64,000 nucleotides of DNA from assembly GCA_964252035.1 (NCBI GenBank), contig OZ176203.1; one strand, written 5' to 3'. This document shows positions 26,901 through 37,960 of the stretch, in pieces (positions within the stretch are counted from its first letter, which is position 1; every line of letters starts with the position of its first letter). The notes under the pieces are model-generated. The model was not told where the DNA came from, made no database searches, and saw only the letters and a list, made by a program, of their open reading frames with translations. Both the position numbers and the translations under genes were made by a program. The DNA is from Podarcis erhardii (Eukaryota).

Positions 26901-27577
26901 CTTTCTCCTTCACACTTGGAACATTGAAAGTCAACTTGAATTGATGTGAGTAAATGCAGATGGATTACACGAGCACAGCCTACTCATGTATGCTCTGGGC
27001 CTCGTTGAAAGTTCTGCGCATGGTTAAACTTCAGGCTGAACAGACCACAATTAATGGAACTCTGGGGCTCTGGAAAGGGAGTGTGAACTTCAAATCTAAC
27101 CTGAGGAGGGGGGGAAATTATTAATATTTTCTGCTTGTGAGTATTCCAGTTTGGAAAATGCAGATTTCCACCCAAATGCTATGAGATCAATAAGAACTGG
27201 CACCAGACTATCATGCACAGTTCATCAGGCATCCTCAAAAGAAGAGCTGTTATAGGGACCTGGCCCCAAATATTTTGTCTGTGTGTGCATTGTTTGTCTG
27301 TGTGTAGCATTCCCAACTTAACATGAGCAGGACTTTTACCCTGCCTGTTTATGGTTAGCATGACTATCAAGTGCCCAAGCCCAGATGTAGGAAAGTCAAT
27401 AATAGAGTACATGCTTTACATACTAGACCCACTGAATTTAATTAACATGACTTATGTCGGGTAGGTTTTGGAAAGACTTCTGTCTGAATCTCTGGAAGGT
27501 CTCTGTCAGTCTGTGCAGATAATATTGAGCTACATGAAGGAATGGGATGACTCAATATAAGGCAGCTTCCTATGTTT

Positions 27578-28659
27578 TCTTTGTTTCTGATAGAAAACAA
27601 TTATAAGAACACATGGAAAGAAATAAGGAAGGATTTGGACACTTGGAATAGAATACACCTTTCCTGGCTGGGGAGAATGGCAGCAATCAAAATGACCCTA
27701 TTACCAAAATTATTATTCTTATTTCAAAATATACCGATAATTAGGGGAATTTCACTATTCAAAGATTGGCAGAGAACACTTTCCAAATTCATCTGGCAAG
27801 GGAAAAGACCAAGAATTAGATTCAAATTGCTCACAGATCAAAGAGATAGGGGTGGATTCGCGGTCCCAAATTTAAAGTTATACTATGAGGCCTCATGTCT
27901 TTGTTGGGTAAAAGAGTGGATTGTTATCAAAAATAAAGATTTGTTAGATTTAGAGGGATTCAACTTGAGATTTGGCTGGCATGCTTACCTATGGCGAGAT
28001 AAGGGAAAGGTCCACAAGGGTTTTTCCAACCACATTTTTAGAGGGTCACTGCTAGAAGTGTGGGAAAGAAATAAAAAACTATTGGAACAGGAAAACCCCT
28101 GGTGGTTATCACCAATTGACATCTTGACATTAAAAAAAACAAACATCGAAGGGGAAAGATGGACCTACAAAGATCTACTAGCTAAAACAGAGACCGGGTG
28201 GAGGATCAGACCATATGAAGAAATAAAAAAGAAATTGACAGGTTGGATTCAATATCACCAAATCAATTCTATGTGGACAGAAGATAAAAAGAAGGGGATA
28301 AATGAGAAAAAATCCAGATTCCAGATCGAAATATTAGAAAGCAAAACCAAACTACTATCAAAAAATGTACAGCCAGCTACTCGAGTGGGACACCAAAGAT
28401 GAGGAAGTAAAGGAGGTAATGGTGAGATGGGCAGTGGATTTAGGATATAATATAGAATTTGACAAATGGAAGACACTGTGGAGCAAAGGTATGAGTTTCT
28501 CGGCTTGTACAACACTCAGGGAAAACATGTACAAGATGATGTATAGGTGGTACATAACGCCAGTAAAATTGGAAAAAATATACAAAACAGGTGACAAAAG
28601 GTGTTGGAAATGCAAGAGCAAGGAGGGCAACTTCTATCATATGTGGTGGTCATGTGAGG
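27578..28659 (+). pseudogene. L1 ORF2 3' fragment, part 1 (frameshift in the A-run near 28360)
   Basis: LSWLGRMAAIKMTLLPKLLFLFQ, FIWQGKRPRI, DRGGFAVPNLKLYYEA, CWKCKSKEGNFYHMWWSC are collinear with ORF2 at 6223-9963. Confidence 0.9.
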
Positions 28660-29305
28660 TGAAGGCTGAACCTTGTCCTTGCCAGGGAATTCGTTTGCCC
28701 GCGTCCCCAGTGCCGAAGAGAGAGCAAAAAGCACCAGGAAAGTTTCTTCTTTGGAGAAAAGAGTTTATTGCAATCTGCGCAGAGTGACAACCAGCAGGAT
28801 AGCTCCTGCAAACTGGCTGTGTCCCAAGACACTTCAGCAGACTTTCTTATACTTTTCTGAACACTCTCCCCCCTCCCATACCCTTTCCAGATTTGCCCAA
28901 TCAGCTGGCAAATGTTCAACTTATTCCCTTATATGGCACATCTATATTGCTTGCTAAACACATTTTTAATGCTTGCTAAACATTCCTTATACGTGTCTTT
29001 CTGCTAGCTAAGCACTCCCCCCCCTCCCCTCTTGCTTATTGTGTCTTTTCTTATCTTTGCATTAGTAAGCATAAGGCAGGAAGAAGGGGCCTGGTTAAAT
29101 CTGCAAACAGCAGCTAAAATATTTTTGCAAGCTAAGAAATGGACTTTTGACCTGCCAGACAGATTTAGCTGGCGATGTGCTAACTGTCTGGCCAAATTTG
29201 CAGAAGTAAGATTAGCACAGGATTTTACTGCAGATAGCATTTGAGAGCAACCTTTCTTAGGTACAAAGTACAAAGCACAGAGAGTATTGAAAGAAATCCT
29301 TCCCA
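28660..29305 (-). repeat. 3' LTR (646 bp, TG...CA)
   Basis: Starts TGGGAAGG after the PPT and ends CCTTCA; CCAAT 28897-28901, TATAAG 28846-28851, AATAAA 28764-28769. Confidence 0.93.
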
Positions 29306-29306: not shown

Positions 29307-29332
29307 CTCCCTTTACTCCCTCCTCTTCTTTT
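29306..29332 (-). promoter_or_regulatory. Polypurine tract
   Basis: AAAAGAAGAGGAGGGAGTAAAGGGAGA directly before the LTR TG. Confidence 0.85.
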
Positions 29333-29342
29333 GAACAATCTA

Positions 29343-30836
29343 TTACTTAGATTCGTTCTGGGGTAGGAGTCTATATTCTCTCATTACAGCAATCACGCGA
29401 GGTCCCATCATGCGGGACATCATCTTTTCCATCATATTCTGCAAGCATTGCATCAAGCAGGGAATACAAAAGCAGAGCAATAATAAAAGCATTAGAGGCC
29501 CTATCAGCATCATAACAATACGCCCCATCCATCCCCCAGGAAAGATGTCATCCAGCCAGGACATGTCCCACCCACTCCAGGTTTGCACGGGGACATGCGC
29601 TACCTTTTCGATGCTGGCTGCTAAATTGCGGATGGCTTCTCCATGATCTGAAATGTTAAAACAGCAGGCTCCTCCGGTTAGATTAAGGGCTGCACAAAAA
29701 CCACCTTGCTTTGCCAGAAGAAAATCCATTCCCAGACGCAATTGGAGGATGGCCGTTCGGGTTTCATCTAATTGCTTGGCCACCAACCTGAGCGCGGTGG
29801 CCGTGGCATTGGCCACAATCTCCACTACTGCCTGGAGCCGGATGATTCGGTTAAGATTATAAATGGGCTCCCTGGCACCAGCTACCAACTCACCAGGGTT
29901 CCAGGAGGCCGGATCATAATGGGCAATTATTCGTTCAGGTGGCCACTCGTCTTTTCCCCAGGTCTGCTTACTGCCTGAGGCGATCCCTGATATGTCCACA
30001 GAACGGCGATGCCGCCAGGGCTTTTGAGAAGGGGGCAAAATCCACATGGGGGGCAAAAGAAAGGCAGGGAAGCAAGTCCCATGCCAGGGGTAGGGCAGAT
30101 CATGGTAAGCACTGGTTCCACAAACCCAATAAAGACCCAATTTTCTCTGGCTTAGACCCTTCTGCGTGATCAAGATTCGATTAAGGATTTCTATCAAAGC
30201 CTGGCACCTTCCATCACACCCTAGATAGGTGACCCTACTATTTCGTGATGTCACATTGCCTGGATCACAAGAACAGGTACAGTGGGACATTCCAACAAAA
30301 ATAGGTGAAGACCGACTCCTTTGTTGCGTCACACACAACTGTCCACGAACCCTATGGACCCTCAAAGGGGATGGGTGGTCCCATTGTGGCCAGAGCTCAG
30401 AATCTGGGAGCTTGGAGAAATTCCGGATGGTGGAATAATTGAATGGCAGTGGGAGGAAAGGTAAGCCTCCCAGAGCATCCGTTGGGGCAAGGGTGCATAC
30501 CAGACATTTGGTCTTATTAACTGAATGGGCCATCATTTCGGCCATCTGTAACCACCTATTGTGGGGGCTTTTGGCTCCCCAATCATATATTTGTTTGGTG
30601 ACATTAGCATAGGAGATCTTGACTCCCTGTCCTGGGGTGATGGTGCCATCAGATCCTTCTGATAAGAAGAGGATGAGTATCATTAGGGGTATGGCTGGAT
30701 TACGCTTTCTCCCACAAATTCGGTCACGCTCATGCCAACAGAAATAAGCGAGCATCCAAAAAATCAGAGCTGTACAAACCATCGCCAGCCACCAACCCCA
30801 ATAATTCCATGGTTCCTCCCACCACAGATCAGTCAT
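29343..30836 (-). CDS. env: Intact gamma-type Env, ERV3/HERV-E-like, 497 aa
   Basis: CLVC (aa 111-114), furin site RHRR (275-278), WPPERII...PIYNLNRIIRLQAV typical of ERV3-type TM, ISD LQLRLGMDFLLAKQGGF, CX9CC, hydrophobic anchor, YRLL. Confidence 0.93.
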   Translation of the reverse strand: MTDLWWEEPWNYWGWWLAMVCTALIFWMLAYFCWHERDRICGRKRNPAIPLMILILFLSEGSDGTITPGQGVKISYANVTKQIYDWGAKSPHNRWLQMAEMMAHSVNKTKCLVCTLAPTDALGGLPFLPLPFNYSTIRNFSKLPDSELWPQWDHPSPLRVHRVRGQLCVTQQRSRSSPIFVGMSHCTCSCDPGNVTSRNSRVTYLGCDGRCQALIEILNRILITQKGLSQRKLGLYWVCGTSAYHDLPYPWHGTCFPAFLLPPMWILPPSQKPWRHRRSVDISGIASGSKQTWGKDEWPPERIIAHYDPASWNPGELVAGAREPIYNLNRIIRLQAVVEIVANATATALRLVAKQLDETRTAILQLRLGMDFLLAKQGGFCAALNLTGGACCFNISDHGEAIRNLAASIEKVAHVPVQTWSGWDMSWLDDIFPGGWMGRIVMMLIGPLMLLLLLCFCIPCLMQCLQNMMEKMMSRMMGPRVIAVMREYRLLPQNESK

Positions 30837-31215
30837 GGTATGGGTCTGGAAGGGGGTTGGGGCTACCCGGACGCTCGAGTTGGTTAGGGAAACAAGGTCG
30901 GGGATACCTCCAAGCGTCGAACCCTATGGTGTGGAGATAAAACCCTTCAATCCCCGGGGGATGGTGGTACCCCTGATGGGTAGAGGACAACTTTGCCCCC
31001 CATGGAGAGGGTACCCACGGTGGATGGGCCACTACACACCCACACGAATAGGTAGCCGCCTGTAAACGGCAAATGCTCGGTGTCAAAATCCCCACTGCTT
31101 CCTCCTCACACCATATAATGCACACTAAAGTTCGTTCAGGGTTCTGGACGTTATCAGGGGACAAAGGCTGCAAGGCTGGAACGTTGGAGGCACTCCCGAT
31201 GGGTGCCCCTCCCAT
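30829..31215 (-). CDS. Candidate accessory ORF (128 aa) between pol and env
   Basis: ATG 8 nt after the pol stop; stop overlaps the env start by 8 nt; Cys/His/Pro-rich; no homolog recognised. Confidence 0.45.
   Translation of the reverse strand: MGGAPIGSASNVPALQPLSPDNVQNPERTLVCIIWCEEEAVGILTPSICRLQAATYSCGCVVAHPPWVPSPWGAKLSSTHQGYHHPPGIEGFYLHTIGFDAWRYPRPCFPNQLERPGSPNPLPDPYHD
30920..30945 (-). promoter_or_regulatory. Probable env splice acceptor
   Basis: TTTTATCTCCACACCATAG|G (AG ends at 30924); the next downstream ATG is the env start. Confidence 0.45.
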
Positions 31216-31223
31216 CCAATTCT

Positions 31224-33095
31224 TCAGCTGTGCGTAGAGATATCAGCTTCCGGTGTGATATCAGCAGAGCGGTCGTCTGTCAGGCGTCTGGAGATAGTCA
31301 GCCGAAGGGAGTTCTCCGGATCTGGTGTAACTGTCCAGTCTGAAATGGCTCTCTTTACTCGAGTATGGTGGACCCACGGGGTGATGCCAGCAACCTTCAC
31401 AGCAGTAGGTGTAGAAAGTAGCACAGTGTATGGTCCCTTCCAGCAAGGCTGTAGGGGGGCTCGCTGCCAGTCTTTCACCCACACTTCATCACCTGGCTCG
31501 AACTGATGGAATGGTTCAGTTAACACACATGGGGTGCGAGCCTGGGTCCACCTGTGGAAACAGGAGAGAACTTGGGAGAGTGACTGCACATAGTTATTCA
31601 ATTGCATATCTTGGCTAGCATATGGAGTTAACATCTTAACATATGGGACTGGTCTCCCAAACAAAACCTCAAAGGGTGACAAGTGGGTCCGCTTTGAAGG
31701 GAGACTGCGGACCCTGAGCAATGCTAAGGGCAACATGGCCACCCAATTAGACCCGGTCTCCTGCGTCAGCTTGGACAGCTGATTTTTTAGAGTTCTGTTC
31801 ATTCTCTCTACCTTTCCAGAACTCTGGGGTCTATAAGCAGTATGCAGCTTCCAGTTGATCTGGAGCGCTTTTGCCAGTCCCTGTAGGACTGCATGAACAA
31901 ATGCTGGTCCATTATCAGATCCTATGGACCTTGGCAATCCATAGCGAGGGATGATTTCCCTAAGCAGGCACCTGGTTACTTCAAGCGCCTTTTCAGTCTT
32001 GGTGGGCCATGCTTCGACCCACCCGGTGTAGGTGCACACTGCCACCAGCAGGTAGCGGTATAGTCCGCAACGGGGCAATTCAGTAAAGTCCACGACAAAA
32101 TCTTCCATAGGTGCAGTTCCACTGTGCTGAATCCCTGGGGGAGCCAGTGGTCTGGCTCTGGGATTATTCTTTTGACATAGCAGGCATTTCCTGGAGATCT
32201 GGGCTGCCAGTTGGTAGAGGTGGGATATATAGAAGCACTTCCCCAGCTGCTTGGTTGTAGCATCTGGTCCTATGTGGGTTGAATCATGGTATCTCTGGAT
32301 TATCTGCCGAGAAAGAGACTCTGGAATCCATATCCTGTCATCATGGGTAAGGTACCATCCTTCTTTGGACAATGTCAGTTCCTGGGCGTCTGCAGTGTCC
32401 TTTTCCTGCTTTGTGTAAGCTGGCTTGTCAGCGGTGCTTAAAATCTCTTCTGGGACCAGTGCTCCGATAACCAAGGTGGAGGCCAGTTCCCGGGCTGCTT
32501 CCTTGGCCATTCTGTCTGCTAATCGATTTCCTCTGGCCACTTCCCCTGGTCCAGTCTTGTGGCCATAGCAATGGATAACTGCCACTGCCTCGGGCTCACA
32601 TACAGCATCCAGAAGGTTCAATAGAGCTTGCGGGTGGGCCACCTGGTTTCCTCTGGAGGTAAGCAAACCTCTTTCTTTCCATAAGGCTCCATGGGCATGT
32701 AAAGTCAGGAATGCATACTTAGAATCTGTGTAAATGTTTATTTTATGTCCCTTTGCCAGGCTCAGGGCTCTGGTAAGCGCAGTTAGTTCTGCCAGCTGGG
32801 CCGATGTTCCAGGCGGGAGTGACTTTGCTTCAATCACCTGGTCTTCCAGGGCCACCACTGCATAGCCCGCCTTCCGCTGCCCAGCCTCAACAAAACTACT
32901 TCCATCTACAAACCACGAAGGCCAATGGGGGTTTGCCTCATCTTTGAGATCAGGTCTGCTGGAATATACCTCATCCATTACTTCAATGCAATTGTGTGTC
33001 TGCTCCTCACCTTCTCCTACCGGCAACAGGGTAGCTGGGTTGAGGGCGGTGGTAACCTGGAACTTCAAGCGCGGCACCTTGTTCTGTAGGTGTCA
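31224..33095 (-). pseudogene. pol: pol 3' part: RNase H and integrase, out of frame with RT
   Basis: TALNPATLLP, WFVDGSS, SAQLAEL, IYTDSKYAF, GNRLAD; HDSTH...CLLC; DFTEL, DNGPAF, SSGKVERMNRTLK; WKGPY. Confidence 0.93.
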
Positions 33096-33099
33096 GGCG

Positions 33100-34659
33100 C
33101 TCAGATAGGTATGCCACAGGCTGTTGCCAGCTTCCCAATTTCTGGCATAGGACTCCCTTTGCTGTTCCCTGGTCCTCATCCACAAACAGGGAGAAAGGCT
33201 TTTCTGGGTTTGGGATACCCAGCGCTGGTGCTTGTTGCAATGCCTTTTTCAAATCCTGGAAGGCCTGTTGCTGTTCTTCTCCCCACACAAAGGGGTCCTT
33301 TTCCGTCCCTCTGGTTGATTCATGCAGAGGCTTGGCAATTGTGCTGTAATTTGGTATCCATATTCTACAGAATCCTGCCGATCCCAGAAAGCCACGAAGT
33401 TCTCTGCGATTCTTTGGTTCTGGAATCTGGATAATGGCTTGCTTCCTTTCTTCCCTTAGGGTCCGTTGCTGATAGGATATATCGAATCCAAGATATTTCA
33501 CAGTGGGTTGGCATATTTGGGCTTTTTTCTTAGATACTCGGTATCCTGCTTCACCCAGATGGTTCAGCAAGTCCTTGTTGGCTTCCATACACGTGTCTTT
33601 GTCTGAACAAGCCAAAAGAAGGTCATCCACGTACTGCAACAAAACTCTGCGTGGGCTGGTGGAGAAGCTAGACAGGTCCGATGCCAATGCAACCCCAAAA
33701 AGGGTTGGAGAATTCTTGAAGCCTTGTGGAAGCCTCGTCCACGTATATTGCACCCTGGTGCCTGTTCCTGGGTCTGTCCATTGAAATGCAAACAGGGGCT
33801 GACTTTCCTCTGCCAGGCGGCAGCAGAAGAATGCATCCTTCAAGTCCAATACTGTGAAATAACATGCAGTGGGAGGTATTAGACTAAGCAGCGTGTAAGG
33901 ATTGGGCACATTGGGGTGGAGGGTTTCCACGGCCTGGTTGACCAATCGAAGGTCTTGGACCGGGCGGTACACGCCATCTTCCTTCTTCACCTGCAAGAGT
34001 GGGGTGTTCCACTGAGATTGACACCGTCTCAGGATGCCATGGCGAAGTAGCCGTTCCAAATGTACCCATACTCCCTCCGCAGCTCTTCGGGGGATCGGAT
34101 ATTGGTTTACAGCCACAGGGTTGGCGAATGGTTTGGGCTTGACTATTATAGGTGGGATGTTCTTTGCCATTCCGGGCGGGTTGCCTTCTGCCCACACATC
34201 AGGGTTAACTTCTTGCAGGAGGTCCTCTGAAATAATCCCCTCCTCTTCTTTTATCATCATTAAGCGCCAGTGTTCCCTTAAGGGTACCTCTAAGGAGAAT
34301 TCCCCTGCTGGCCCTGTGGTCATTGTTACTTCTCCTGTTGGTTGGAAAGAAATCTGGGCTTGCAATTTTGATAGCAGGTCTCGGCCCAATAATGGGATGG
34401 GGCACTCCGGTATATACAAAAACTTGTGTTGGACCACTTGGCCGCCCAAGCGACAGGCAACAGATTGCAAGAATGGGGCTCTTTGTGATTTGCCTGTAGC
34501 TCCTACTACATTAATTGTTTGCTTGGTGGGCTTGGATACTGGTACTGGCAAAACAGAGTGTGTGGCTCCGGTGTCCACCATGAAGGGGATGGTTCGGTTC
34601 CCTGTTTGTATTTTGACCATGGGCTCACGGGAACCTAAATCAGCTGGGCCCGGTCTGTC
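33100..34659 (-). pseudogene. pol: pro-pol 5' part: protease and RT, truncated in the connection domain
   Basis: FMVDTGATHS, LLGRDLL, YRPVQDLR, LDLKDAFF, LPQGFKNSP, YVDDLL, VKYLG, PVAYLS; then deletion and frameshift. Confidence 0.93.
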
Positions 34660-34662
34660 CTA
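34621..34662 (-). promoter_or_regulatory. Gag-pol UAG readthrough junction
   Basis: gag TAG followed by G, continuing in frame (DRPGPADLGSREP) into pro, the arrangement used by gammaretroviruses. Confidence 0.8.
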
Positions 34663-36507
34663 ATATTCTTCTTCTTCCTCTCTCAGGCTCATTGCGCCGG
34701 GCTGTCTTTGGGCTGGGGGGTGCCAGGGGGGTTCCTGTCCACGACCTCTACCCCTGCCGACATTCGCCGATGTCCAGGGTCTCCGTTCCTGTCCAGGTCC
34801 CATGGGGATTGGCCCTGGGACTCGTTCTCCTCGTCCTCTTCCACCTGAGTGAGCCTGTGGGCATTCCCTTTTCCAGTGCCCTTCCTGCCGGCAGATGGCG
34901 CACTGGTTCCTCCTCAGACGGCCTTGCCCTCCTCCCCGGGCGCTTCCTCTTTCATGAGGGGTGGATGTGGTAACCTGTAACGCCATCAACTTTTTTGCTT
35001 GATATTTCTCCTTTTTCTTTTGTGCCTCTTCCTCCCTCTGATTATAAGTGGTTTGAGCCAATTCTAACATCCACTCAAGGGTGTGGCCCATGAAAGCCTC
35101 GTGCTTTTGAATTTTTCGGTGGACATCGGATGCTGCCTGAGCTACAAAGGCAGTTTTTATGATTGGGGCATTGGCAGCCTCATCTGGGTCCACAGGGGTA
35201 TACTGGCGGTAAGCTTCCTTTAGTCTTTCCAGATAGGCGCCTGGGGGCTCCTCACTCCCTTGCATTATCTCCCTGATCTTGGCAAAATTAGTAGGCTTCC
35301 TGGCTGCCCTTCTCATGCCATTTAAGACATTCTGGCGATAAGTGGTGAGGGTATTTTGCCCATCAATGGTCTGATAATCCCAATTCGGTGTATTTTCAGG
35401 ATATCCTGTTGCAAGAGCTTGCTCTCCTACCCCCTGCGTTCTCATGTGTGCTCGGGCTTCAGTATGAATTCGCCTAACCTCCTCTGTAGTTAGCAGGGCA
35501 TCCATCAAATACTGTACATCATCATAAGTGGGATTGTAGGTTTTGAAAATTCCCTCAAACAGCTTAATTATTTTTGCTGGGTTTTCCTCAAATGAAGGGT
35601 TTTGGTTCCTCCAGTTACAAACGTCTGCACTAGAGAAGGGGACATGTTGAACTGTATAAGTTCTATTGGGCACCTCCCCGTCAGGTCCCGCGGGGGCCGG
35701 AGGGTCATACACTCTGCGGAGAGGCATCACTCTGGCCGCGCCCTTCTCCTGTGCTTTATGTGCCCTATGGAGGGTCACTCTTTTTGCTGCCCTTCCCCAC
35801 TCTCTCTGCCACTTCCTTTTCTGTTGCCCTGCACATTCCGCCGCCTTTAACAAATGGTGGCTGACATCCACTTCTTTTGCATAAGGTTCCACATACTTTC
35901 TTAAACGTTCTGCCTGTTTCTCTGTCCATGTCTTATTATCATTTGTCAGCTTAACTAATCTTTCTACAAACTCTTCATCCTCATCATCCTCTTCTCCTTC
36001 TGACTCATCATTCTTGGGTTCGGGTGGGCCAGCTCCTCCCAGTGTCTGGGGACCTGGGTCTGGTAGATTTGCCTGAGGGGTAGTTGGTGGAGCATAGGGG
36101 GGAGGTGGTTTAATAATTCCTCCCTCCTCATCTTCTGGGTCTGGTATCACTGGGGGCCTTTCTGACTTCCCCACCGGTTGAACTGCACAAACTGTACTTT
36201 GTGGGGCGTCGCCCTGGCAGGCTTTCAACCATGGTGGGTTCTTCTCTACATTGGTTTTCCAAGTAGAAATATAAGGGATCTGATCTGGGTGGACATTCAA
36301 GATGTTCTGATATAATGGGCTGATTAGCTGCAAATCAAAGCTCCCTTCCGAAGGCCAAGTAACTTCTTGTAAGGGCCAATCAACTTCACACAATGTCCTC
36401 ATTCTCTGTCGTCTTAATTTAATTCCCCAGTCATCATTTTTTGTGGCTGCTTTCCAGTTGTTTAAGAAGCATTCCAGGGGACTACATTGGCTTGCCCCAG
36501 ACCCCCT
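34660..36507 (-). CDS. gag: Gag (MA, p12-like, CA, NC); open frame, but the predicted start codon reads AGG; first in-frame ATG at 36402
   Basis: (M)GSGASQCSPLECFLNNWK, WPSEGSF, PPPY late domain, PFSSADVCNWRNQNPSF, MHR QGSEEPPGAYLERL, single CAICRQEGHWKREC knuckle. Confidence 0.9.
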   Translation of the reverse strand, partial: RGSGASQCSPLECFLNNWKAATKNDDWGIKLRRQRMRTLCEVDWPLQEVTWPSEGSFDLQLISPLYQNILNVHPDQIPYISTWKTNVEKNPPWLKACQGDAPQSTVCAVQPVGKSERPPVIPDPEDEEGGIIKPPPPYAPPTTPQANLPDPGPQTLGGAGPPEPKNDESEGEEDDEDEEFVERLVKLTNDNKTWTEKQAERLRKYVEPYAKEVDVSHHLLKAAECAGQQKRKWQREWGRAAKRVTLHRAHKAQEKGAARVMPLRRVYDPPAPAGPDGEVPNRTYTVQHVPFSSADVCNWRNQNPSFEENPAKIIKLFEGIFKTYNPTYDDVQYLMDALLTTEEVRRIHTEARAHMRTQGVGEQALATGYPENTPNWDYQTIDGQNTLTTYRQNVLNGMRRAARKPTNFAKIREIMQGSEEPPGAYLERLKEAYRQYTPVDPDEAANAPIIKTAFVAQAASDVHRKIQKHEAFMGHTLEWMLELAQTTYNQREEEAQKKKEKYQAKKLMALQVTTSTPHERGSARGGGQGRLRRNQCAICRQEGHWKRECPQAHSGGRGRGERVPGPIPMGPGQERRPWTSANVGRGRGRGQEPPWHPPAQRQPGAMSLREEEEEY

Positions 36508-36850: not shown

Positions 36851-36862
36851 GGGCTCACCTTT
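36851..36862 (-). promoter_or_regulatory. Probable major retroviral splice donor
   Basis: AAG|GTGAGC in the leader (GT at 36858-36857), between PBS and gag. Confidence 0.6.
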
Positions 36863-37047: not shown

Positions 37048-37065
37048 TTCCCGGCCAACGCACCA
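37048..37065 (-). promoter_or_regulatory. Primer-binding site, tRNA-Gly(UCC)
   Basis: TGGTGCGTTGGCCGGGAA, 3 nt after the LTR CA; complementary to the vertebrate tRNA-Gly(TCC) 3' end TTCCCGGCCAACGCA-CCA as recalled. Confidence 0.9.
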
Positions 37066-37068
37066 AGA

Positions 37069-37609
37069 TGAAGGCTGAACCTTGTCCTTGCCAGGGAATT
37101 CGTTTGCCCGCGTCCCCAGTGCCGAAGAGAGAGCAAAAAGCACCAGGAAAGTTTCTTCTTTGGAGAAAAGAGTTTATTGCAATCTGCGCAGAGTGACAAC
37201 CAGCAGGATAGCTCCTGCAAACTGGCTGTGTCCCAAGACACTTCAGCAGACTTTCTTATACTTTTCTGAACACTCTTCCCCCTCCCATACCCTTTCCAGA
37301 TTTGCCCAATCAGCTGGCAAATGTTCAACTTATTCCCTTATATGGCACATCTATATTGCTTGCTAAACACATTTTTAATGCTTGCTAAACATTCCTTATA
37401 CGTGTCTTTCTGCTAGCTAAGCACTCCCCCCCCTCCCCTCTTGCTTATTGTGTCTTTTCTTATCTTTGCATTAGTAAGCATAAGGCAGGAAGAAGGGGCC
37501 TGGTTAAATCTGCAAACAGCAGCTAAAATATTTTTGCAAGCTAAGAAATGGACTTTTGACCTGCCAGACAGATTTAGCTGGCGATGTGCTAACTGTCTGG
37601 CCAAATTTG
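37069..37609 (-). repeat. 5' LTR, missing the outer 105 bp of U3
   Basis: Matches 28660-29200 at offset 8409 with one substitution seen (28868 C / 37277 T); followed by filler GTACCAAA(T) instead of the U3 end. Confidence 0.93.
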
Positions 37610-37622
37610 GTACCAAATGAGG

Positions 37623-37960
37623 TACTTAGAAAATTTTGGGAATCCATCTATAATGAATTTTTAAAAATTCTTAAATATACCTTCAGTAAAAAACCTGAAG
37701 CCTTCCTGCTGGGGATAATCGGAGAGGAAATTAAAAAGGAGGATAAGACACTTTTTCAATAAGCAACGGTGGCTGCCAGAACCCTCATAGCACAGTATTG
37801 GAAAACACCAAAAACCCCAACTATAAATGAGTGGCAATCTAAACTATTGGCTATCTAGAATTGGCAAAAATGACACAGAAAATAAGAAACCAAAAAAGTA
37901 CAAAATTTAATAATGAGTGGGATAAATTCAGGGTATACATGGAAATAGAGACAAAGGAAA
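37623..37960 (+). pseudogene. L1 ORF2 3' fragment, part 2
   Basis: (V)LRKFWESIYNEFLKILKYTFSKKPEAFLLG continues part 1 exactly once the provirus and one TSD copy are removed; contains a stop and a frameshift. Confidence 0.9.

Follow-up and report, generated by a model that had tools for sequence, protein, structure and literature searches.

Gamma-like retroviruses serve as the textbook example of a simple retrovirus. A provirus on the minus strand of a stretch of Podarcis erhardii contig OZ176203.1 raises the question of whether the open reading frame between its pol and env genes is itself a gene and, if so, what its product might do. This frame, here called ORF X (30829..31215, minus strand, as are all proviral features below), starts with ATG and encodes 128 amino acids; coordinates refer to the window, the whole 64,000-nucleotide stretch analyzed. 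We conclude that ORF X is very probably an accessory gene that codes for protein in a clade of gamma-like retroviruses. A preliminary description had proposed an accessory protein gene in a class I (gamma-like) lineage, and the proposal is supported by a dN/dS of 0.11 and by a reverse transcriptase (RT) closest to MLV-type enzymes.

The provirus is flanked by a 5' LTR (37066..37609) and a 3' LTR (28657..29200), both given as the portions that align to each other. They differ at 2 of 544 aligned nucleotides, and this near identity indicates that the window provirus inserted recently. The match ends at 37609, about 110 nt before the expected U3 start (37609-37760), and the 3' LTR probably extends to a purine tract near 29320. 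The host site is a 3' fragment of a LINE-type RT/ORF2 (27572-28787, plus strand, with ORFs of 276 and 140 aa), L1/Tx1-like by appearance. Internally, gag (34660..36402; 580 aa, open) is followed in the same frame, after a stop, by pro-pol (31224..34620), the two ORFs starting at 36402 and 34620; the arrangement recurs in a related element (L079). Pro-pol is broken in the window copy, where a 182-nt deletion near 33075 splits it into ORFs 33007-34620 and 31224-32978; a contig from run X1 likewise has 183 letters at the site of this deletion. The env gene (29343..30836; 497 aa) is open.

In Pfam, the gag, pol and env of the provirus carry MLV-type domains (Gag_p30, Gag_MA, MLVIN_C and TLV_coat, the last in env at E 9e-15). 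The RT is nearest to MLV-type enzymes (E 1e-131, against 1e-42 for foamy virus and 1e-26 for the next polymerase), a placement that is a similarity ranking against PDB chains and not a tree with reference viruses. An MLV-type Gag (MA, p30, one CCHC knuckle) is accompanied by a GPY/F module at the C-terminus of integrase (IN). Env has a CXXC in SU, a furin-like site and an ISD-like stretch. The TM disulphide motif that follows, at about 29620-29660, is spaced C-x9-CC instead of CX6CC, as it also is in lineage B (below). By its RT, its Gag and IN domains and the shared gag/pro-pol frame, the window provirus is a class I (gamma-like) ERV. In a comparison of the window (37048-37065) with the leaders of two relatives (L078, L079), primer binding sites differ between close lineages and appear Gly-like in the window and lineage D, Glu-like in lineage F and Pro-like in lineage B.

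ORF X begins 8 nt after the pol stop (the RNaseH-IN ORF ends at 31224), and its own stop overlaps the env ATG (30836) by 8 nt, exactly as the preliminary description had placed it. Its length is only moderately unusual and is weak evidence for coding, as 567 of 20,000 shuffles of the pol–env gap (2.8%) leave one of the sense frames free of stops for 128 codons or more. The case for X as a gene is made by conservation, not by length. ATG GG(N) GG(N) opens all 22 X frames and all 4 paralogue frames listed. The position of the pol stop, by contrast, varies between lineages by as much as 45 nt, so that X is not an extension of pol. At the other end, lineages A and B conserve the terminal stop that overlaps the env ATG. 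An antisense ORF at 30835-31065 was ruled out as a gene, its frame having stops in lineages B and C.

Related copies were collected by DNA and protein searches of the same genome that returned the best candidates only, so that all copy counts are lower bounds. Lineage A comprises the window and at least one further copy, with an identical X protein and a frameshifted env. Lineage B has at least 11 copies, whose X protein is 68% identical to that of A, and lineage C at least two among the matches listed. Lineages F and G are single listed copies; in each, the deletion that takes out env also cuts into ORF X, which is 47% (F) and 42% (G) identical. Among the copies listed, X is whole in 2/2 of lineage A, 3/11 of B and 0/2 of C. 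Eight B copies are broken, one by a stop and seven by a frameshift at a C-run near codons 64-66, where all seven share one lesion pattern. Three copies combine a broken X with an open env (L036, L037, L052/L004), and two an open X with a broken env (L032, L034). Retention of the frame, which the preliminary description had put forward as a test, thus gave a divided result: X is kept across diverged lineages, but three copies have lost it while env stays open. The presence of broken copies implies that X is dispensable for germ-line spread or persistence, or is supplied in trans, and this pattern of loss fits an accessory gene rather than an essential regulator. One deleted copy (L080, G000:C11:18241300-18241800) has its 5' LTR end fused directly to the middle of ORF X. 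A candidate X locus at G000:C19:12670770 (L082) proved to be a spurious match.

Further lineages carry parts of a larger cassette. Lineage D (L006-L030; at least 25 loci) has lost gag–pol and keeps an X stub of 16-30 codons in 24/25 loci; it carries a different ORF of 135 aa, Y, which is whole in 23/25. In lineage E (L053-L072, L077, L085), gag, pol and env are all fragmented, and three ORFs follow one another: Y (128 aa) and two X paralogues, of 68 and 116 aa. A 121-codon frame is open in 20/22 of the lineage-E matches listed, the 20 open copies being near-identical and hence not independent. Lineages D and E are high-copy non-autonomous ERVs that keep Y open, E also keeping two X paralogues. 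One lineage-D element (L025, G000:C5:67187046-67187800) is situated immediately after a GPCR-like host ORF of 247 aa. A more distant provirus (L073, G000:C16:32428600-32431400, minus strand) is 69% identical to the window in RT and 42% in CA and has a different env type. Four extra ORFs occupy its pol–env gap. They are Y1, a homologue of X that is interrupted by one in-frame stop, Y2, whose tail is rich in Cys, and an ORF of 106 aa that has a hydrophobic span at its N-terminus and overlaps the env start in another frame. X homologues in the more distant ERVs are 35-47% identical, and open homologues of the lineage-E and L073 proteins are found in Logan (P0001, P0002, P0006) and ENA assemblies.

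Selection on X was estimated from Nei–Gojobori counts on frame-blind DNA alignments, and the IN, env and SU controls from protein-guided ones. Between lineages A and B, differences amount to 65 over 94 synonymous sites and 53 over 287 replacement sites (dN 0.21, dS 1.9, dN/dS 0.11, Fisher p 4e-19), and the ratio is 0.11 in each half of the frame. The controls for the same pair gave 0.07 (IN), 0.14 (env) and 0.18 (SU). For A and C, dN is 0.18 with dS saturated (p 5e-28), and other pairs gave 0.19 (B and C) and 0.26 (A and F). Because dS is near saturation, the X ratios are approximate, but the direction they point in is clear. In X, three synonymous changes and no replacements separate the two lineage-A copies. 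Third codon positions account for 67/120 of the differences to B (p 3e-7) and 78/124 of those to C (p 2e-11), and each of the remaining five frames of the interval has stops in both B and C. Indels between intact lineages preserve the frame, the one between A and B being 3 nt. The preliminary description had named dN/dS as a check, and the value of 0.11 between A and B is far from 1 and indicates purifying selection. Genomes of the genus Gammaretrovirus consist of gag, pro-pol and env only, and this provirus falls outside that description by carrying ORF X under a dN/dS of 0.11; it does have a selected extra protein-coding gene, one of the marks of a complex retroviral organization.

Within lineages, the signal changes with the age and nature of the copies. 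Synonymous and replacement changes in X number 1 and 5, 1 and 2, and 0 and 7 among young lineage-B copies, a lack of synonymous bias that decay following insertion would be expected to produce. In lineage E, dN/dS is 0.30 (p 0.048) and 0.36 (p 0.013) for the X paralogues and 0.46 (p 0.073) for Y. At 0.12-0.14, the dS of the E cassette is higher than the 4% difference of the decayed pol next to it, a sign that the cassette has recombined and that selection in place is not the whole account. Between lineages, Y is less constrained (0.39-0.65), and within D it is near neutral (0.68, 0.88).

The env gene beside X has features of its own. Its leader of about 64 aa (30645-30836) contains a Trp-rich hydrophobic segment at about residues 15-35, a basic patch and a second hydrophobic stretch, and is 47-67% conserved across lineages with different SU; after cleavage, it may be a membrane protein or a Rem/Rej-like product. 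Protein identity between A and B is 79% in IN, 83% in TM, 68% in X and 42% in SU. In contigs from runs X2 and X4, ORF X is present in full, at about 95% identity, with another SU attached: a single contig covers 30785-31230/31243, differs at 20-22 positions and then runs on into that SU. In these contigs, 779 other letters replace SU (window 29981-30785), and X, leader and TM are kept. This replacement is envelope swapping among relatives.

How X might be expressed can be read from candidate splice signals. The donor at 36858 and the AGs at 31228 and 30924 that the preliminary description listed are all present as placed. The candidate major donor (36852..36861, intron start 36858) recurs in 6/6 inspected leaders that have a 5' end, the seventh region lacking a leader. 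Acceptor SA1 lies within IN (31551..31575; strong polypyrimidine tract, AG 31553-31552), and its AG is kept in 5/5 lineages; the env acceptors of gammaretroviruses lie at an SA1-like position, within IN upstream of the GPY/F module. Directly 5' of the X ATG is a block (31216..31305) that is conserved in nucleotides despite a differing frame of the IN tail between lineages. It contains SA2 (AG 31289-31288, kept in 5/5 lineages), a branch-point-like CTGAC, GAAGAA immediately before the ATG, and the acceptor proposed near 31227 by the preliminary description, whose AG (31229-31228) exists but is kept in only 3/5 lineages. SA3 (30923..30942, AG 30925-30924), a candidate env-only acceptor within ORF X, is kept in 3/3 lineages that retain that part of X. 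Two upstream ORFs of 4 codons precede the X ATG from 31551 on, neither kept in all lineages, and no conserved internal donor was seen in the X region across the lineages compared. On these signals, an RNA spliced from 36858 to 31552 or 31288 would have X as its first long ORF, and env would be made by leaky scanning or through its own acceptor at 30924.

No RNA run on record is listed with this stretch. Contigs from four presumed-RNA runs of two other organisms cover ORF X; such assembled contigs cannot reveal strand, transcript ends or level. None of the contig joints shown (15 of 40) is splice-like, and searching the genome with two exact junction probes turned up no spliced retrocopy, so that no X transcript junction or protein was seen in the contigs and retrocopy probes. 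Retroviral transcripts were excluded in PMC9723728.

Homology searches returned nothing beyond the family itself. A single-sequence search with X gave no matches. When 1.84 billion representatives were searched with a profile, the only matches were two members of the family and two that proved to be noise; across the profile searches, the genuine matches were the family members P0001, P0002 and P0006. A nematode repeat protein and a glycosyl hydrolase were rejected as homologues, with no matching stretches or only repeat-driven ones. Pfam assigned no family to any of 17 X members, PDB sequences gave no match to X, the Atlas held nothing usable for X or Y, and IMG/VR had no match for X or for the RT. 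The AlphaFold2 model of X is unusable (pLDDT 41.7, with a low-confidence beta core at 32-64 only), and its structural comparisons (best viral Foldseek match E 0.88; best VIA match Z 2.0) are uninformative given the poor model. A likeness between CGC...TH-x-G-x-x-H and geminivirus TrAP was not accepted, as it reached only rank 18 (E 2.7) and had no Pfam support. The Y model is better (pLDDT 70; helix, five-strand meander, helix), and among its fold matches none is clear: the best is cytochrome c'-beta (Z 6.5, rmsd 3.0, 91 aligned), polo-box-like folds score Z 5.4-6.0, and Foldseek gave none at E 0.001. A weak Pfam match of Y to TMEM95 (E 0.077, in 1/15 members) was disregarded. No relatedness of X to Y was detectable by hhalign (probability 0.9%), and X and Y are at least two protein families without a match in the searches made.

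The conserved residues of X differ from those first described. The pattern C32xxxC36-x12-C49-x8-C58xC60-x3-H64 and the Pro-rich tail noted in the preliminary description are present in the window protein, in which 20/128 residues are Pro. As a metal motif, however, the pattern does not hold up, as just C58 and C60 are invariant in the 17/17 aligned members: C36 is Ser in lineage B, and C32, C36, C49 and H64 are missing from distant members. Invariant in all 17, which include near-identical copies and represent about six lineages, are M1, G2, G3, T45, P46, Y56, C58, G59 and C60. The conserved pattern is TP-x9-Y-x-CGC, with H80 and H85-P86 also conserved, and the motif persists at 30-40% identity. 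A related pattern, CxC-x17-19-H-x3-4-HP, occurs in 7/9 X proteins tested (7/7 of the longer ones, and neither 68-aa paralogue) and is a candidate zinc site; because the fold model is unusable, this site is without structural support. The invariant Gly2 suggests N-myristoylation. A PROSITE-like pattern matches 7/9 X proteins and fails for the window protein and the lineage-E 116-aa protein, and retention of Gly2 could be due in part to the +4 G of the start context. X has 6 K+R and 10 D+E in 128 aa (pI 5.8), is Pro-rich at both ends, and lacks a basic cluster and a membrane span, a composition that would fit an adaptor better than an RNA binder.

The reading we favor, and judge to be evenly balanced between right and wrong, is that X is an N-myristoylated, zinc-stabilized adaptor made from spliced RNA that would neutralize a host antiviral factor during infection. 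Myristoylation would occur at Gly2, and zinc would be bound by C58, C60, H80 and H85 (or H95). By analogy with Nef, Vif, Vpu, S2 and glycoGag, the membrane-tethered protein would bind and neutralize its target; it would be needed for infection, dispensable in the germ line and lost after endogenization. Duplication, loss and swapping are typical of host-conflict genes. X has been duplicated, lost and swapped between pol backbones (lineage F is 94% identical in pol and 47% in X), which argues for such a role.

Among other explanations, it is unlikely that X is a viral regulator, whether a Tat/Tax-like activator or a Rev/Rex-like RNA export factor. Its size and position resemble those of lentiviral and deltaretroviral regulators, it has a Cys/His core, and several candidate acceptors imply multiple RNAs to control. 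Against this, its few charged residues form no Arg-rich or acidic block, a conserved internal donor for a second exon was not seen, copies with a broken X have spread, and the conserved basic patch of the env leader makes the leader the better candidate. We consider it improbable that X is a captured and diverged fragment of a host gene that alters cell growth or signaling, as with the walleye cyclins or the CrocERV29 KIT ligand. X does occupy the slot of that KIT ligand (PMC4299795, excerpt), and survival of the cassette in non-autonomous elements could mean a benefit to the host cell or to the element. However, no host-gene match emerged from the search of its own genome, where the loci inspected were ERV-linked apart from the spurious one, from Pfam (17/17 members) or from the 1.84 billion representatives; no host homologue was detected by sequence, and a remote origin is possible. 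Equally improbable in our estimate is that X serves as a virion or assembly cofactor, acting at the membrane together with Gag or with the long Env leader. X stays linked to the leader when SU is exchanged, and its predicted lipid anchor would put it at budding sites, but X also accompanies another type of env (L073), elements without usable gag and env have it too, and germ-line copies have spread without it. It is very unlikely that X makes no free protein and only contributes an exon to a longer product, spliced or fused, with the IN tail or the Env leader. X adjoins both neighbors and its stop-to-stop frame runs 9 codons further upstream of the ATG, but the ATG-Gly-Gly is invariant, the stop over the env ATG is conserved in A and B, and the pol stop is mobile with no conserved donor seen. 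It is extremely unlikely, and largely refuted by the dN/dS of 0.11, that this stretch acts only as non-coding RNA (acceptors, enhancers, an export signal) and has its ORF by chance. A chance frame of this length is within reach of shuffled sequence, many copies are broken and nucleotides just upstream are highly conserved, but the protein has been conserved across saturated synonymous sites, the opposite of what constraint on the RNA would leave, indels keep the frame and the protein motif outlasts deep divergence.

For the clade as a whole, the best reading is a group of complex gamma-like retroviruses whose pol–env accessory cassette, in relatives, comprises from one to four extra ORFs. We tentatively propose, at somewhat less than even confidence, that undescribed complex retroviruses arose within the gamma-like clade independently of lentiviruses. 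They would have deployed up to four accessory genes (X, an X paralogue, Y1/Y2 and a Vpu-like ORF) against reptile antiviral factors, and selection would have maintained the cassette in non-autonomous elements that had already lost gag, pol and env. The X/Y clade would then be a case of genome complexity arising again, in a recently active gamma-like branch and in the slot used by lentiviruses. Time and again, accessory proteins have been the route to a host restriction factor, Vif to APOBEC3, Vpu to tetherin and Nef to SERINC, and X and Y could serve as baits for little-known antiviral factors of this host group. The pol–env gaps of class I ERVs, usually taken as non-coding, merit a codon-level scan.

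The full-text literature searched, which lay outside subscription journals and Repbase/Dfam, gave no description of such ORFs in reptile gamma-like ERVs (cf. excerpts of PMC12690878 and PMC8922424). According to PMC9967133, viruses with a gamma-type Env are typically simple, and excerpts of a study of anamniote gamma-related class I ERVs describe a typical gammaretroviral structure, with an OGFr capture within pol (10.1101/2021.11.23.469661). The closest parallel in position is CrocERV29, whose KIT-ligand ORF between pol and env is termed highly unusual in the passages of PMC4299795 that also give RSV src and the orfA/orfB cyclins of walleye epsilonretroviruses as host captures in full retroviral genomes. 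CrocERV29 shares with the window provirus an extra ORF in the same slot of an otherwise full genome. However, these captures are recognizable, whereas no cellular homologue of X or Y was detected, and the two form duplicating cassettes of several genes. MMTV Rem and JSRV Rej are long Env signal peptides with regulatory roles (PMC9967133, excerpt). The long leader of the window env, with its basic patch, resembles them; X, in contrast, is a separate ORF in another frame that ends at the env start. Likenesses to the lentiviral central region (vif, vpr/vpx, tat, vpu) include short ORFs between pol and env and the duplication of paralogues. The membrane-anchor ORF of L073 that overlaps the env start recalls Vpu, the Met-Gly-Gly start of X recalls Nef, and its Cys/His zinc-type motif recalls Vif. 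Unlike the lentiviral genes, X has no Pfam match and accompanies a gamma-type pol and a probable gamma-type env, so that the likeness is one of layout alone. With MLV-type gammaretroviruses and class I ERVs, the provirus shares an RT nearest to the MLV type, the Gag_p30, Gag_MA, MLVIN_C and TLV_coat domains, the common gag/pro-pol frame and a candidate acceptor inside IN. It differs from them in the long two-segment leader of its env and in C-x9-CC for CX6CC and, above all, in belonging to a clade with a selected gene between pol and env, and up to four in relatives.
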